NCBI GenBank assembly: GCA_964594755.1
Contig: CAZQMO010000004.1
Span: 4,311 to 68,310 of the forward strand
Direction: 5' to 3'
Source of the DNA: an uncultured Candidatus Saccharibacteria bacterium
GTDB taxonomy: Bacteria; Patescibacteriota; Doudnabacteria; UBA920
Length of the DNA stretch: 64,000 nucleotides
The position numbers and the translations under genes are program-made. Shown here piece by piece: positions 1 through 52,010 of the stretch; position 1 is the stretch's first letter, and the number at the start of each line of letters is the position of its first letter. The notes under the pieces are model-generated. The model was not told the DNA's origin, did not search any database, and was given only the letters and a program-made list of their open reading frames with translations.

Positions 1-1518
1 ACAATTAGCTCTAACCCCGAAGATGTACCAGATGATACACCAGAAGGTGCGGCCACTACTGCCAATTATAAGCAGGTACCCAGCGGCATTAACTATTTTC
101 ATATCAAGGCGTTTAGAGATGGCCGTTGGGGTGGAGTCAGTCATTATAGTATTAAAGTAGATAATCAGCCACCAGCAGAGTTTATAATCGCTGTATTACC
201 GTCGAGTCGTACTAACGTCACGACTCCAATTATTGAATTTCAGACCACAGATTCTTTGTCTGGACTGGATCGATATGAAATTAAGATTATTCCACTTCGC
301 GTGGACGGCAGAAATAATGCTGAGCTTACAGAGCTATTGTTTGAGGAGACTGATAGTCCATACAAAAATGCTGATTTAGCCTTCGGAAGTTACGAAGTAA
401 TCGTGAGAGCCTACGACGAGGCAGGCAATATCCGTGAGGCTACCAGAAATATTGAGATTTCCAGCTCAATTTTTTGGTTCATGACTACGGACGGAGTTAT
501 CTTGCCATTTAATCATTTAGTAGGTTGGCCGGTAATCTTTGGTTTCTTGATATTACTCTTGTTACTATTACTGATCATTGCATACATTTTACGCAAGTGG
601 TACAAGCTGGCGCACGAGAAAGTGGTTTCAAATCAAGTTCCTGCAGGTTTGACTCAGCAACTTGAAGAACTTCAGCGCTACCGAGCCCGTTACGGCAAGA
701 TGGTCGCTGTATTTCTCGCCGTAATATTTATAGGAACACAACTAGCTGGTACTACTGTCTTTGCGCAAGCACCTACTCCAATTGATGAGACCGAACCAGC
801 TCCAGTGGAGCAGATGCAAACACCACAGCTTTCTGTTAGTGAGGATGTTAACGAATTTACCCCGCCGGTTATTACCAGCTATTCAGCCAATATTAAAGAT
901 GATGAACTCTTCTATGTAAACGGCCGAACCACTGAACCAAATCAAGAGGTGGTGGTTCACTTGCAAAGCATGGTGGACGGTAATGCTTATGACTTTATTA
1001 CTCAATCAGATAAGCGTGGGGATTGGACATATCGCCATCAGGATTTCTTAGAAGGTGGTCGCTATATCTTATGGGCTCATGTTCGTGAGAATGGCCAGTT
1101 GTCTAGCCCAAGCCCTCAGGTAGAAATGGATGTCAAACCAGTGGCGCTAAATTGGGGTAACTCTCGTATTACTTACCAAAGTTTATATTTGGGAATGATC
1201 GGCGCTTTGCTTTTAATGGTATTAGGTCTGATTGCTTATATTATCATTCACGCTATTTTGGTTCAGCGCCGCCGCCGCCAATTTGCGCATAGTTTACGCC
1301 AAGCAGAAGATTCAATTAAGCGTGGTTTCATAGCTTTGCGGCGTGATATTGAAGCTGAGTTGCTACTAGTAAAACAGGCTCACTTACCAGCTGATTTAGC
1401 AGGTGAACAGAAAGTACGTCAGGAGCAACTAGAAGCTGATTTGCGTAATATTGAACAATTAGTTGGCCGCGAAATGTGGGAAGTGGAAACTTTTGAAAAA
1501 CTACCAGGCTCGAGTTAA
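1..1518 (+). CDS. cell-surface/membrane protein, C-terminal part (5' end lies outside window)
   Basis: Frame 1 is open from nt 1 to the stop at 1518. There are two hydrophobic helices (LLLLLLLIIAYIL and IGALLLMVLGLIAYIII), each followed by an Arg-rich stop-transfer, and a charged coiled-coil tail. No family assigned. Confidence 0.6.
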   Translation, partial: TISSNPEDVPDDTPEGAATTANYKQVPSGINYFHIKAFRDGRWGGVSHYSIKVDNQPPAEFIIAVLPSSRTNVTTPIIEFQTTDSLSGLDRYEIKIIPLRVDGRNNAELTELLFEETDSPYKNADLAFGSYEVIVRAYDEAGNIREATRNIEISSSIFWFMTTDGVILPFNHLVGWPVIFGFLILLLLLLLIIAYILRKWYKLAHEKVVSNQVPAGLTQQLEELQRYRARYGKMVAVFLAVIFIGTQLAGTTVFAQAPTPIDETEPAPVEQMQTPQLSVSEDVNEFTPPVITSYSANIKDDELFYVNGRTTEPNQEVVVHLQSMVDGNAYDFITQSDKRGDWTYRHQDFLEGGRYILWAHVRENGQLSSPSPQVEMDVKPVALNWGNSRITYQSLYLGMIGALLLMVLGLIAYIIIHAILVQRRRRQFAHSLRQAEDSIKRGFIALRRDIEAELLLVKQAHLPADLAGEQKVRQEQLEADLRNIEQLVGREMWEVETFEKLPGSS

Positions 1519-26182: not shown

Positions 26183-26410
26183 CTAACGGTTAAGTAGTAC
26201 GATTGTAAGACTGAGACCGGCGAACAATACAGCTAGAACGATTGTGGCATAGAATAACCACTTTTCACCACCACGGCGAGTTGTGATTACGCCTCCACCA
26301 CCAAAAATATTGGATAAACCTGAAGATTTGTTTTGCAGGGCAATACTGATAACCAAAAGCACCATTACTACCATATCAATGATTGTCAGAATATAAGCCA
26401 AATTTCTCAT
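26183..26410 (-). CDS. secG: preprotein translocase subunit SecG
   Basis: 75 aa, two TM helices, Gly-rich central loop (NIFGGGGV). Confidence 0.7.
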   Translation of the reverse strand: MRNLAYILTIIDMVVMVLLVISIALQNKSSGLSNIFGGGGVITTRRGGEKWLFYATIVLAVLFAGLSLTIVLLNR

Positions 26411-48031: not shown

Positions 48032-49255
48032 TTAGCGCGGCGTAATCACATTTGTGGTTGCGCCAATTTTATTTAAGATTTTTTGTTTCTCCTGTTCGGT
48101 TGCCAAACGAGGTTGCCCGTAATTTTCGATGATCACAGGAACTAACTCGATTTGTTTAAGAGTAGCTGGCTTTGGCGTGCCTTGCAACTCAGTTGTGCAC
48201 ACAAGGTTAATTTGCTCAGTTCTAGACAGGGGAGTGGGCGAGTTTGGTAGTAATCCAGGATGACATAAACCTGGTTTAGTAAGAGTGATTTTTAGCATTA
48301 AACCTTCCCGTGTATCTTGGCTCCACATTTGATCGAATACAAAGTTTCCCAAAGAATAAAAAATTTGTTTGCCTTTGTATTCTTCAATGGTTTGGATCCA
48401 GTGTGGATGAGCACCAATAACGATATCAGCTCCAGCATCGATAGCGGCTCGAGCAAAACCTGTTTGCTCATAATTAGGTTCACGCGTATATTCTTCTCCG
48501 GCATGCATGGTTACCACAATAAAATCGCTACGGGTTTTTAGTTCTTTGATTGATTCGGATAAACGGCTCTGGTCTTTGATTCTTGCTGTGTGTTGTGCAT
48601 CAATGAACCCATCTGGAGTAATGGCAGCGTAGGTAGCTCCAATAAAACCTACTCTTACACCTTTAATAGAAAACACTTGTCCTTTCCAAGCTTCATCTAA
48701 GTTTGAACCAACTCCTAGTGCTTTAAGGTTATTTTCTTCTAAGATTTTTTTGGTGTAAGTTAGACCATCAAGACCTTGATTAAAAATGTGGTTGTTGGCC
48801 AAGTTTAAAACAGTAAAGTTGTATTGCACAAGTCCTGGTAGTGACCAAGATGGCGAATTAAAAATAAATTGGTTCTGGAATTTGTATTCATCACTCCCAC
48901 TAAAAGGTGACTCTAAATTGCCAAAATTAAAATCCACATCCCAACGGAGTTCATTTTCTAGATTGCGAAAAGGCCAATAGGCATCTCTTTGGTTTGCATA
49001 CATTTTATTGGCCACTTCGCGAGAAAGCATGATGTCGCCAACCGCATTAAAGGTAACTTCTGTGTTAGCGTCTTTGAGATTTCTAAGCTGTTGCTGTGAC
49101 CATTGATAGTAGTCTTCAAGCGAATCTCCAGAGATTCCTCCGTAAAGAGGTGGGCTTTGCGAGTTTGGATTCAGTGTTTGATAACCGAGTACTCCGAAAG
49201 CGCCTAGAATAAATAGTAATACTGCGCTGATAAAAATTTTAGGGTGAAAGTTCAT
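48032..49255 (-). CDS. CapA-family metallophosphatase (poly-gamma-glutamate synthesis-type)
   Basis: N-terminal TM helix; GDIML, GNLES, NNHIFNQG, GAHPHW metallophosphoesterase motifs. Confidence 0.7.
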   Translation of the reverse strand: MNFHPKIFISAVLLFILGAFGVLGYQTLNPNSQSPPLYGGISGDSLEDYYQWSQQQLRNLKDANTEVTFNAVGDIMLSREVANKMYANQRDAYWPFRNLENELRWDVDFNFGNLESPFSGSDEYKFQNQFIFNSPSWSLPGLVQYNFTVLNLANNHIFNQGLDGLTYTKKILEENNLKALGVGSNLDEAWKGQVFSIKGVRVGFIGATYAAITPDGFIDAQHTARIKDQSRLSESIKELKTRSDFIVVTMHAGEEYTREPNYEQTGFARAAIDAGADIVIGAHPHWIQTIEEYKGKQIFYSLGNFVFDQMWSQDTREGLMLKITLTKPGLCHPGLLPNSPTPLSRTEQINLVCTTELQGTPKPATLKQIELVPVIIENYGQPRLATEQEKQKILNKIGATTNVITPR

Positions 49256-50373
49256 AAAATTGTTTGATATATCTGAGGGTGAATTTGTTTAATTTTGGAT
49301 TTAAGTTCCAGGGTACTGAGGATAGCTTGTAAATTTGTGGTGGTTAATTTTGTTGAGCTCTGAAGTTGCTGAAAGCTTTGTGGTTCATTTTGCATATATT
49401 TTAACACATTCAACTCTTCGGGCTTATAATTGAGGTCTGGGGATGGTTGAGGAAGCTTAAGATCTAGTTCTTGGAGAATCGAGTTGCCAGACATAATTGA
49501 TACTGCGCCATTTGAGATCAATTGGTTGGTGCCGATACTTTGAGGGGATAGGATAGAACCTGGCACGGCCATGACGGTGCGGTTATAATCAGCTGCGAAA
49601 TCAGCTGTAAGTAATGCGCCGCTCTTTTGCGCTGCTTCGACTATTAATACGGCTTGGCTGAGCCCAGCAATAATTCGATTACGAGCTACAAAGAAATATT
49701 TTTGTGGGACAGTTGTCGGAGGGTACTCAGAGACTAATAAGCCATTATTTTGGATGATGGAGTGGGCAAGCTGATAGTTTTCTTTAGGAAAGATATTTAC
49801 GTTATCTAAACCGCTACCTAATACTGCAATAGTCGGCAGTTGATTTTTTAATGCTGTCTGATGAGCGTACGCATCAATCCCATATGCTAAACCAGAAACG
49901 ATACCAATCGGACTTCCGGACAGTTCTGAGACAATTTTATTTACGGCGAGCTCCCCATATTTAGTCGCCCGTCGACTACCTATGATTGCGAGGTTATGTT
50001 GGTGATTGAGTAATTGTTTATTACCACGGTAGTATAAAATTAACGGAGGGTCTGGCAAATGCTTGAGGATGATAGGATAATCTTCTTCAAACATATTTAC
50101 GACAGAGACTTTTGAGTCTCTTAGAAGTTGTAGATACTTTTCTTCAGAGTTGGCTTGCAAGACTGTTAAAAATTTTTGACTGTGATCGCCTGATAGTCTC
50201 AGGATTTGGGGTAGTTTCTCTAATCTAAAACTATGTGGCAGAGTTTCAAATTGAGCTTGCCAACTGACTAAACTATCGATTATGAATGGTTTTGGTTGGC
50301 TAATTGCTAGGCCTAATATATAGAGCAGATAGGTGAGTTTATTCATGCTTAAATTGTGGCATTTAGCAATCAA
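49252..50373 (-). CDS. dprA: DNA-processing protein DprA (Smf)
   Basis: Rossmann-like DprA domain (IIGSRRATKYG...VSGLAYGIDAYAHQ), C-terminal wH; start may be the internal Met at 50346. Confidence 0.8.
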   Translation of the reverse strand: MIAKCHNLSMNKLTYLLYILGLAISQPKPFIIDSLVSWQAQFETLPHSFRLEKLPQILRLSGDHSQKFLTVLQANSEEKYLQLLRDSKVSVVNMFEEDYPIILKHLPDPPLILYYRGNKQLLNHQHNLAIIGSRRATKYGELAVNKIVSELSGSPIGIVSGLAYGIDAYAHQTALKNQLPTIAVLGSGLDNVNIFPKENYQLAHSIIQNNGLLVSEYPPTTVPQKYFFVARNRIIAGLSQAVLIVEAAQKSGALLTADFAADYNRTVMAVPGSILSPQSIGTNQLISNGAVSIMSGNSILQELDLKLPQPSPDLNYKPEELNVLKYMQNEPQSFQQLQSSTKLTTTNLQAILSTLELKSKIKQIHPQIYQTIL

Positions 50374-50430
50374 AACCCTATTAATTTTGCTTGAATTTTA
50401 GTTAAAAAATTGTTGAGGTTTCTTTAAATA

Positions 50431-50459
50431 TTGACAAAATAGCTATTTTGAGGTACAAT
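50431..50459 (+). promoter_or_regulatory. consensus sigma-70-type promoter
   Basis: TTGACA-17 nt-TACAAT. Confidence 0.6.
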
Positions 50460-50465
50460 TCCAGC

Positions 50466-50880
50466 ACAAAACTTAATTGTTTGACCAAGTTTGGTCTTGC
50501 GCCAGACTGTAAAGTGGTAAAGAAAAGTTTTGAAAATTTGTCTTCAGTATCCTACTTGTAAGTCGCGAGAGCGGGGATCATCCCTCCTATTTCTCCGCTA
50601 GTAGCGGTTAAGCAGAGACTTCGCAGCGATTGCTGTGTGCCTCTCACTTGCAGGTGGGGTAGTGAAGATAAAAACCATCAAACCATCTTCTACTGTTTGT
50701 TCATGAGGCTTCGCCGCTTTGCGGCTGCAGATTCATTCTCAAACAGTAGCAGATGGTTTTTATCTTCTTGGGAGAGAGGGTTTTGGAATACAGCTGCAGA
50801 TTGGTTCACAAACAATAGCGGGATTTTTATCTTCACAGGGATAGTGGGAAAACTAATACCGGCCTGGGCCGGTTTTAGTT
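50466..50880 (+). ncRNA. candidate ~410-nt structured noncoding RNA (unclassified)
   Basis: Consensus promoter, many short GC hairpins, a 107-nt IR hairpin (gtgaagataaaaaccatc ... gatggtttttatcttc), a 49-nt tandem duplication (50728-50776 and 50794-50842) giving alternative pairing partners, and an intrinsic terminator accggcctgggccggttttagtttt. The only ORF (87 aa, W-rich) is implausible. No RNase P, tmRNA, 6S or SRP signature seen. Confidence 0.4.
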
Positions 50881-51414
50881 TTGGAGGAACTTTTCGATGA
50901 GTTTGTTGGTCTCTGGGAAAACTTTTTCTTGTAAAGTATTTAACTCTTCATCAGTGAATTTTTGCAACACGAATTCATCAGTTGGTAGAGGGGAGTCGGG
51001 TTCGCGTGATTCAACTCCAATGCGAATTCGAGCAAAATCTTTACTTCCGAGTTCATCAACAATGTTTTGAACACCATTATGACCTGCGGCGCCGTTACCA
51101 TGAGCTTCGCGCAAACCACCAAATGGTAAATCCTTTTCATCGTGAATGACTAACAGGTCATATTTATAATCAACTTTATAGAATGAGCAAATCTCTCTAA
51201 CTACTTCACCAGACAAGTTCATAAAACTTTGTGGTTTAACTAAGAAAACCTTTTCTCCATTTTCGTGATACTCACAAATTTTGGCATCGAACTTGCTTTG
51301 ACAAGCAATTACATCACGGTCCTTCATAAAATAATCCAAAGCCAAGAATCCGGCATTGTGACGGGTGAGTTCGTATTTGTTTCCAGGGTTTCCCAAGCCA
51401 ACGATTATTTTCAT
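50875..51414 (-). CDS. pth: peptidyl-tRNA hydrolase
   Basis: MKIIVGLGNPGNKYELTRHNAGF...VIHDE; start taken at the internal Met; the ORF-track 5' extension is probably untranslated. Confidence 0.85.
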   Translation of the reverse strand: MKIIVGLGNPGNKYELTRHNAGFLALDYFMKDRDVIACQSKFDAKICEYHENGEKVFLVKPQSFMNLSGEVVREICSFYKVDYKYDLLVIHDEKDLPFGGLREAHGNGAAGHNGVQNIVDELGSKDFARIRIGVESREPDSPLPTDEFVLQKFTDEELNTLQEKVFPETNKLIEKFLQN

Positions 51415-51503
51415 GCCAGTATTATAGCAAAAAATAATGTGCTTATTGACTAATTTGCAAGACCGCGTGATAATAAAAAAAATTCGAAGGAGTGTTGCTG
51501 AAT

Positions 51504-52010
51504 ATGGCTGTATACGAGTTGCACATTTTTCCCGATGAGATTTTGGTGGTTCGTCATAACTTTGAAAAAAAGTTACTAGTTGTTGAGTTCTTACCACACC
51601 AAGCTCCTGAGCATATTCCCGAGTGTCCAACCATTGCTTGGATAAATTGGGGATTCGATCGTTATCTCCGTTTTTTGGGTACAGCAGTCTGCCCTAAGGT
51701 AAAACATAACTTGGCGTTGTTTTTTGGAAAGATCTGTTTTCAGGGTTGTTATGAGAGCAAGATTGTTCAACAAGCGACCTTACAAGACTTTCCTGGAAAG
51801 CTACGAGTCTGGTATCGGCAAATTTTGTTGTTCTTGCGACGATACTCTCAAGGAAGTTATCTAACGGATTATTTCCGAAAGCAACTCAAGCTAAGTTTGA
51901 TGTATTTTTGGAATTCTGGTGTTCAATATGGTAATGGGATTCGGAGCGCCTCGCAAGATGCTTGGCTACCTGAAGGCTGCCTAGATCTAACAGCAGTTTC
52001 GATTTCCTAG
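51504..52010 (+). CDS. hypothetical protein (Cys/Trp-rich)
   Basis: TTGACT-17-GATAAT promoter at 51439-51467, aaggag SD, terminator at 52016-52044; no family recognised. Confidence 0.4.
   Translation: MAVYELHIFPDEILVVRHNFEKKLLVVEFLPHQAPEHIPECPTIAWINWGFDRYLRFLGTAVCPKVKHNLALFFGKICFQGCYESKIVQQATLQDFPGKLRVWYRQILLFLRRYSQGSYLTDYFRKQLKLSLMYFWNSGVQYGNGIRSASQDAWLPEGCLDLTAVSIS

Follow-up and report, generated by a model that had tools for sequence, protein, structure and literature searches.

A candidate small RNA family with an invariant anti-Shine–Dalgarno-like loop in a Doudnabacteria-like clade of Patescibacteria

Small RNAs of Gram-positive bacteria that expose C-rich loops pair with Shine–Dalgarno (SD)-like sequences and so occlude ribosome binding. 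A large part of bacterial diversity belongs to the Patescibacteria (CPR), which are almost all uncultivated, and to our knowledge essentially no regulatory RNAs have been characterized among them. A comparable C-rich stretch occurs at the 3′ end of 16S rRNA, where the assembly GTPase Era recognizes GAUCA, notably its two adenines, together with the downstream CCUCC and the base of helix 45 (h45) (reviewed in PMC10582724). Here we report a locus within a 64-kb stretch of patescibacterial DNA (the window, i.e. the whole 64 000 nucleotides analysed) that probably encodes a stand-alone structured small RNA, belonging to a family that matches no described one and that may act via an anti-SD-like loop.

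The RNA maps to a 528-nt intergenic spacer (50347–50874) with pth on one side (50875–51414, minus strand) and dprA on the other (49252–50346, minus strand, the ATG at 50346 being taken as its start). An initial annotation made from the letters of the window had placed here about 410 nt of hairpin-rich sequence with a consensus promoter, an intrinsic terminator and no plus-strand gene behind it, and on all of these points it was right. The promoter is a sigma-70-type sequence, TTGACA-17-TACAAT (50431–50459, plus strand), which matches the consensus at 11 of 12 positions and outscores all other sites in the 2.5 kb scanned (49500–52000); its −35 hexamer and much of its −10 element are unchanging in alignment A1, and TTGACA(A/T)-16..18-TAnAnT was found 5′ of the conserved core in every one of the 29 homologous loci. 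Transcription is predicted to start near 50466. At the other end ACCGGCCTGGGCCGGT (50858–50873), followed by a T-run, forms the core stem of a bidirectional intrinsic terminator (50849–50882, both strands; inverted repeat I3, 16 nt, 94%) that gives a terminator-like score on both strands and is common to the convergent pth. The predicted transcript is ∼415 nt in length and its fold is far more stable than that of shuffled sequences (z = −8.6 for the plus strand, −7.1 for the minus strand). The gene map contains no plus-strand gene downstream of it in the window, pth and dprA both lying on the minus strand with pth antisense to the RNA. At the sequence level the RNA has a promoter and a terminator of its own and would not be part of an mRNA.

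Among the homologous loci an intrinsic terminator was recognized by a simple scan in 25 of 29, usually ≤ ∼25 nt past the end of P1, the helix that closes the conserved core, and predicted transcript lengths range from 171 to 430 nt. Much variation lies at the 5′ side, where the distance from the predicted start to P1 varies from 4 to ∼250 nt across the 29 loci and is occupied by unrelated leader hairpins. The leader of the window (50466–50534, plus strand), a closed hairpin in the minimum-energy structure, is common only to L005 and L011; other clades have leaders of different kinds, and five loci (L002, L009, L020, L023 and L024) have none, so that P1 begins 4–5 nt past the predicted start.

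DprA homologues place the window within the Patescibacteria, its named relatives being Candidatus Doudnabacteria. Judged on contigs with DprA relatives of 45–74% identity, the gene order der – small ORF(s) – pth – long spacer – dprA – PGA_cap protein (in most loci) – topA is broadly kept, and the spacer of every such relative contains a stretch like positions 50535–50675 of the window, on the strand opposite dprA. A scan of one genome per GTDB species with the pattern AAGTCGCGA-N8-ATCATCCCTCCTAT returned 21 genomes, each with a single match and an identical 8-nt spacing, and six metagenome contigs were returned by a second pattern in which the junction strand J1/2 and the 3′ strand of P1 were anchored and the hairpin between them was left free. 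Each of the 29 loci has a single copy of the RNA, invariably flanked by a divergent dprA and a convergent pth. No match to the covariance model was found beside dprA in three more distant CPR genomes, nor in IMG/VR viral contigs and phage records, and these searches suggest that the family is limited to Patescibacteria of a Doudnabacteria-like clade; since both search patterns required AAGTCGCGA, this narrow distribution, as well as the invariance of J1/2 described below, is partly artefactual. The single copy, the fixed site and the absence from viral contigs and phage genomes rule out a mobile element. No description of such an RNA was found in the literature searched, motif-discovery papers included.

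The defining element of the family is, by comparison of the homologues, a 141-nt core (50535–50675, plus strand) that would fold as a three-way junction of helices P1, P2 and P3. P1 pairs 50538–50563 with 50646–50671 through 9 bp, a 2 × 2 internal loop and a further 15 bp, the outer part of its 3′ strand being GUGAAGAUAAA. Its 5′ strand leads into J1/2, CGCGAGA (50564–50570), of which CGCGA is invariant (entropy 0, columns 30–34 of alignment A2) subject to ascertainment, and then into the P2 hairpin (50571–50598), whose 7-bp stem (50571–50577/50592–50598) closes a loop at 50578–50591. The next junction strand, J2/3 (UAGUAGCGGUUAAGC, 50599–50613), is partly conserved, with A69, C71, A77 and G78 invariant, and reads CAAAC-AYYAAG instead in one subclade. 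P3 (50614–50644) consists of 5 bp (50614–50618/50640–50644), an internal loop, 6 bp (50622–50627/50632–50637) and a 4-nt loop, and the 3′ strand of the junction is a single nucleotide.

The initial annotation had proposed a search for homologous regions with covariation analysis, which yielded 29 homologues and strong covariation. In A2, the alignment of 29 distinct core sequences on which all covariation statistics are based, standard pairs occupy 98.1% of 1218 cells (29 sequences, 42 consensus pairs) and compensatory changes were found at 19 of the 42 pairs (168 cells). None of 500 shuffled controls equalled any observed measure of pairing or covariation, and when partners were slid by 1–3 columns pairing reached only 37–46%. 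Covariation was present at nearly every position of P2 (six of seven pairs with compensatory changes, each in 13–15 of the 29 sequences; 99% of cells paired) and of distal P3 (compensatory changes at 8 of the 11 pairs of P3), and P1 (24 pairs, 98.6% paired) contributed five pairs with such changes. The column pairs with the highest mutual information are all predicted helix pairs, those of P2 scoring highest, and the same measure detected no extra tertiary pairs in A2 beyond the helices. Nucleotide identity to the window averages 73% in the core and 66% in pth; at the protein level the averages are 66% for Pth and 44% for DprA. Substitutions cluster in the covarying stems and the unpaired segments are fixed, the signature of a structured functional RNA, and on this comparative evidence the region very probably holds a structured RNA gene.

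The same data fix the strand. The consensus fold has an energy of −55 kcal/mol on the plus strand and −10.5 kcal/mol as its reverse complement, and covariance model R1 gives the window 148 bits on its plus strand against 31 bits on its minus strand; in the relatives the model scores 126–156 bits on the RNA strand and 15–36 bits on the opposite one. Many conserved U-G pairs of P1 would be A-C mismatches if read on the opposite strand. A minus-strand RNA, or a 5′ UTR of dprA, is rejected, the fold energy and the model scores strongly favouring the plus strand.

An 87-aa ORF with a GTG start (50637–50900), dismissed as implausible in the initial annotation, is present in the window, and this 87-codon frame and the direct and inverted repeats described below are what could be cited for the locus being a small-protein gene, with this or some other short ORF as its product, or else the remnant of a repeat, mobile or without function. 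The ORF is, however, cut to 46 aa in L004, the closest relative, and is missing from most homologues, and no reading frame across the core is open in more than 6 of the 29 sequences. Protein coding is ruled out, as no ORF is conserved and substitutions obey base-pairing rather than codons, and a repeat remnant would sit badly with one copy per locus at a fixed syntenic site and with the absence from viral contigs and phage records. Both versions of this explanation are already largely refuted and extremely improbable.

None of the 4227 models of Rfam 15 matched the region at gathering score (three tRNAs were matched elsewhere in the window), and at E ≤ 10 the region returned assorted matches far below threshold. 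Six related loci gave no match at gathering score, five further loci searched at E ≤ 10 gave different terminator-driven families in each, the RsaE/RoxS family model did not match, and ARAGORN called a tmRNA neither in the window nor in five related loci. The earlier reading of the transcript as an unclassified non-coding RNA with its own promoter and terminator thus gains support from the covariation, from the unconserved ORF and from these Rfam searches, which together with ARAGORN matched it to no known RNA family. By eye, likenesses to 16S rRNA positions 1175–1215, 16S helix 44, RNase P helix P4 and the tRNA D-arm can be seen; such short likenesses were not taken as homology, since chance alone should produce 8-mer matches.

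Rfam models of 6S RNA miss distant phyla. This known blind spot leaves room for a highly divergent housekeeping RNA, of which 6S RNA would be the most plausible (RNase P, SRP RNA and tmRNA were also considered), and size, a strong promoter, ends paired in a long closing helix and a single copy are features that the present RNA has in common with 6S RNA. We nevertheless regard such an identity as very unlikely: none of these families matches even at E ≤ 10 in the window or its relatives, no tmRNA is called by ARAGORN, and nothing related lies beside dprA in the three more distant CPR genomes. The RNA, moreover, folds as a three-way junction whose 3′ junction strand is 1 nt long, and not as a rod with a large central bubble and a long terminal stem; the candidate terminal stem (P3) is of only 11 bp, and the unpaired regions are far more conserved than is typical of 6S RNA.

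The initial annotation had laid its emphasis on repeats in the 3′ half, and here the comparison shifted the picture, as the conserved part is the core in the 5′ half (50535–50675) and only a subclade has the 3′ hairpin and duplication. The inverted-repeat hairpin itself exists as described (50664–50679/50752–50767, 16 nt, 100%, with an inner 27-nt arm of 85%) and so does a second partner arm, 50662–50674 pairing perfectly over 13 nt with 50824–50836. The reported 49-nt tandem duplication stands in part: a direct repeat is present, but as two blocks with a 67–69-nt period (27 nt, 85%, 50724–50750/50793–50819; and 11 nt, 100%, 50757–50767/50824–50834) that Tandem Repeats Finder did not call in the window.

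In the window, L002, L004, L011 and L021 a hairpin of ∼100 nt takes the place of the simple terminator hairpin. This long hairpin, which has a conserved apical internal loop (50662–50769, plus strand, its base overlapping the 3′ strand of P1), shows compensatory changes at 15 of 39 pairs in the five sequences, and by that comparison the second domain is real and lineage-specific. It is included in the 272 nt (50522–50793) over which L004 is 96% identical to the window, compared with 79% for pth DNA and 55% for DprA. Extra partial copies of the 3′ arm are present in the window and in L004, the latter with three UUUUAUCUUC units; the copy in the window (50793–50836, plus strand) ends in UUUUUAUCUUCAC, the alternative partner of 50662–50674. 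Because this second copy is closer to the orthologous arm of L002 than to the first copy of the window, and is less conserved between the window and L004, the alignment suggests a decaying duplication. In the sublineage of the window, the terminator hairpin would have grown into a second structured domain, followed by a half-duplication now in decay.

Through these repeats GUGAAGAUAAA (50662–50672) has three possible partners, namely the P1 5′ strand (50537–50547), the proximal UUUUUAUCUUC (50757–50767) and the distal copy (50824–50836). The mutually exclusive folds proposed at the outset are to that extent available, but the conserved partner is the upstream P1 5′ strand, which had been missed: only the P1 pairing covaries family-wide, and it also wins in the full-length minimum-energy fold of the window RNA. 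In relatives the same A-tract lies opposite the U-tract of the terminator that also serves the convergent pth.

These pairings bear on whether the element might be a cis-acting leader or riboswitch, in which a junction aptamer would decide whether transcription runs past the terminator into downstream same-strand genes or on through pth in antisense. The aptamer-like architecture with covarying stems and invariant junction and loop nucleotides would suit such a device, as would the fact that the P1 3′ strand (GAAGAUAAA) complements the terminator's U-rich 3′ side in many members and, in the window, two downstream copies. Convergent pth is present in 29 of 29 loci, and in 13 of them same-strand ORFs with strong SDs follow the terminator. 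Those ORFs, however, represent several unrelated families (coding for a membrane protein, for small beta-rich proteins and for a four-helix-bundle protein, among others, and in L022 and L041, immediately downstream, for a PemK/MazF-like toxin), and in the other ∼16 loci no gene intervenes before pth; with no recurring gene family downstream, the RNA is not a gene-specific leader. The G+C-rich terminator stems are furthermore independent of P1, no conserved anti-terminator pairing was seen among the homologues, and the overlap of A-tract and U-tract is explained more simply by a terminator shared with pth on the opposite strand than by a regulated switch. We consider a riboswitch quite unlikely.

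The preferred reading, a stand-alone RNA acting through its loop, draws on the most conserved single-stranded segment of the core. The P2 loop, UCAUCCCUCCUAU(U) (50578–50591, plus strand), contains the 13-nt UCAUCCCUCCUAU in 29 of 29 sequences, among them all six metagenome contigs found with the loop left free in the pattern, and it is predicted to be unpaired with a mean probability of 0.94, as expected of an accessible seed. After AUCA it holds CCUCCU, the anti-SD core, and resembles the 16S rRNA 3′ tail (GAUCACCUCCUU). On this basis the RNA would act in trans through the P2 loop, which would pair with G-rich SD-like sequences (GGAGG/GGGAUGA) in other RNAs and block ribosome binding, with the junction as a rigid scaffold and possibly a protein-binding platform. 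We infer this loop-mediated, trans-acting mechanism tentatively, as one possibility that falls somewhat short of an even chance. GGAGG SDs are found on a minority of genes (51 distinct sites in ∼260 kb), so that an anti-SD-like loop would have a defined and limited set of possible partners.

The search for such partners gave little guidance. The 8-mers complementary to the loop are not enriched (∼20 seen and ∼48 expected in 525 kb, both strands, under uniform composition), no extended complement to the loop, J1/2 or J2/3 was found in the 64-kb window, and no consistent pairing was detected in the translation-initiation regions of seven syntenic neighbour genes, which are mostly without SD. For J2/3 a single 13/14 match occurs at 26184–26197, near chance expectation. 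All 13 loop positions are invariant, which is more than SD pairing needs and points to a longer partner or to a protein, and a 24-bp closing helix with a covarying three-way junction is unusually elaborate for a simple base-pairing small RNA.

Given that about half of the Parcubacteria are reported to have no detectable anti-SD motif (PMC9297842), we also considered that the RNA might supply an anti-SD in trans to ribosomes. This found no support, as the flanks of the SDs fit the canonical CACCUCC and not the loop: among the 51 GGAGG SDs, G occurs at +1, as the loop predicts, in 5, and at +2, as the canonical anti-SD predicts, in 18.

The extent of loop conservation brings a protein partner into consideration. 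P2 and its loop could be a decoy of the 16S rRNA 3′ end, imitating helix 45 and the GAUCA-CCUCC tail and titrating a protein rather than pairing with mRNAs; that protein might be Era (through its KH domain), a nuclease involved in processing or a toxin that cleaves the anti-SD. Immediately 3′ of a helix the loop has the sequence (G/C/U)AUCA-UC-CCUCC-UAU, with AUCA and CCUCC invariant, and Era recognizes GAUCA, CCUCC and the h45 base (PMC10582724). That none of the 13 loop nucleotides varies is more in keeping with a protein footprint than with a short seed, a junction that stabilizes the structure suits a presentation scaffold, and the PemK/MazF-like toxin gene adjoins downstream in L022 and L041. 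Yet AUCA and CCUCC are set apart by an additional dinucleotide, UC, only 16 of 29 sequences have the G of GAUCA, G-A is base-paired in P2, and the motif lies inside a closed loop and not in a free 3′ tail. No partner gene is linked at the loci, and the likeness, at 10 of 12 letters, could be due to chance. We judge a decoy of this kind, the chief alternative to the preferred mechanism, to be unlikely. It is likewise improbable, in our estimation, that the RNA is a dedicated mimic of the 16S 3′ end (helix plus AUCA...CCUCCU) that would tune ribosome biogenesis or SD-dependent initiation, whether by sequestering Era (or some other factor that binds the tail) or through competition with the 30S subunit for the few SD-bearing mRNAs.

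What is new here is an RNA family with clear covariation, a promoter and a terminator, and an invariant anti-SD-like loop, in a lineage where most genes seem to be without SD sequences. Should the loop target SD sites or mimic the 16S tail, as the preferred and the decoy readings would respectively have it, the family would offer a handle on the control of translation initiation or of ribosome assembly in reduced genomes. The alignment and the covariance model can be used, even without an assigned function, to annotate the family and to test its distribution.

Set beside known systems, the RNA resembles 6S RNA in its length (∼170–400 nt), probable abundance, long end-to-end closing stem and single copy, but it has no central bubble or long terminal stem, its unpaired sequence is highly conserved and no 6S model matches it. 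Orphan structured motifs and three-way-junction aptamers are alike in their covarying stems, in their invariant junction and loop nucleotides and in their comparable size, and were likewise found by comparative analysis of a long intergenic region; unlike riboswitch aptamers, the present element has no conserved downstream gene, and its terminator looks unconditional. With the 3′ end of 16S rRNA (helix 45 plus the GAUCACCUCC tail, comprising the Era site and the anti-SD) it has in common a helix followed by single-stranded AUCA...CCUCCU, 10 of 12 letters being identical (PMC10582724), whereas here the motif sits in a hairpin loop with a 2-nt insertion and a non-conserved G, and nothing in the Rfam library, ribosomal RNA models included, matches it. 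The RsaE/RoxS-type small RNAs of Gram-positive bacteria, with their UCCC motifs, are similarly stand-alone, with their own promoter and intrinsic terminator, and have as their most conserved element an exposed C-rich loop complementary to GGAGG-type SDs. No sequence or covariance-model similarity links the two (no Rfam match), and in place of short repeated UCCC motifs the family described here has one invariant loop of 13 nt, carried on an elaborate three-way junction that covaries and is closed by a helix of 24 bp.

The spacers 5' of dprA are also long (470-760 nt) in L042, L044 and L046, three loci from more distant CPR genomes, and the RNA is absent from each of these dprA-upstream spacers. 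Positions 4253-5000 of L042 hold an uncalled ORF with a consensus promoter and a Shine-Dalgarno (SD) sequence ahead of it, positions 4239-5000 of L044 include several hairpin-rich repeats adjoining a transposase, and positions 4533-5000 of L046 contain a short, lysine-rich ORF.

The invariant loop (the C-rich, anti-SD-like P2 loop, window 50578-50591) has 7-8-nt complements in some of the RNA's peripheral elements. Such complements occur in the 5' leaders of the related loci L013-L015 (AGGGAUGA or GGGAUGA), in the leader of L016 (GGGGAGG) and in a terminator arm of L027 (GGAGGGAU), and could represent self-masking pairings or chance matches. In L021 and L002, runs of N (assembly gaps) interrupt the repeated 3' hairpin domain that follows the RNA core, and the hairpin unit of L021 recurs past the gap. 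Since these N runs fall inside repeats, the number of repeat units as assembled in the two loci need not be the true number.

SD usage looks low in the window and in all related loci. Among the seven syntenic neighbour genes, most (topA, the capA-like gene, dprA, pth, der and one of two encoding hypothetical proteins) have no SD. A crude scan of approximately 260 kb, comprising the window and related loci, returned 51 distinct, properly spaced GGAGG sites ahead of ORFs 60 aa or longer; in the 64-kb window, 14 of the ORFs with 100 aa or more had SD-like starts. At pth, a TATAAT/TATACT box lies just 6-7 nt 5' of the ATG (window 51415-51440, with an equivalent site in L004, L005, L011 and L030) and no SD was seen before the ATG in these five sequences; translation of pth may start on a leaderless mRNA. 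By eye, the strong SDs were spotted ahead of the small ORFs inserted 3' of the RNA.

Between the RNA and pth lies a hotspot of small variable genes. On the dprA strand of L013 (CP064996.1), this interval also includes a stretch at approximately 2520-2600 (GCGGGTTCAATTCCCGTCCGGTCCACCA) with a match to the T-arm, the acceptor stem and the CCA end of a tRNA; no tRNA was called there by either ARAGORN or Rfam, and the stretch could be a tRNA fragment or the remnant of an integration site. In L022 and L041, a 130-aa ORF is found on the same strand as the RNA, approximately 90 nt past its terminator. By its motif, the putative product of this ORF (MDKSFDEWNLVKKKINF...REVWWCSLGINIGSEQDG...) looks like a toxin of the PemK/MazF type.
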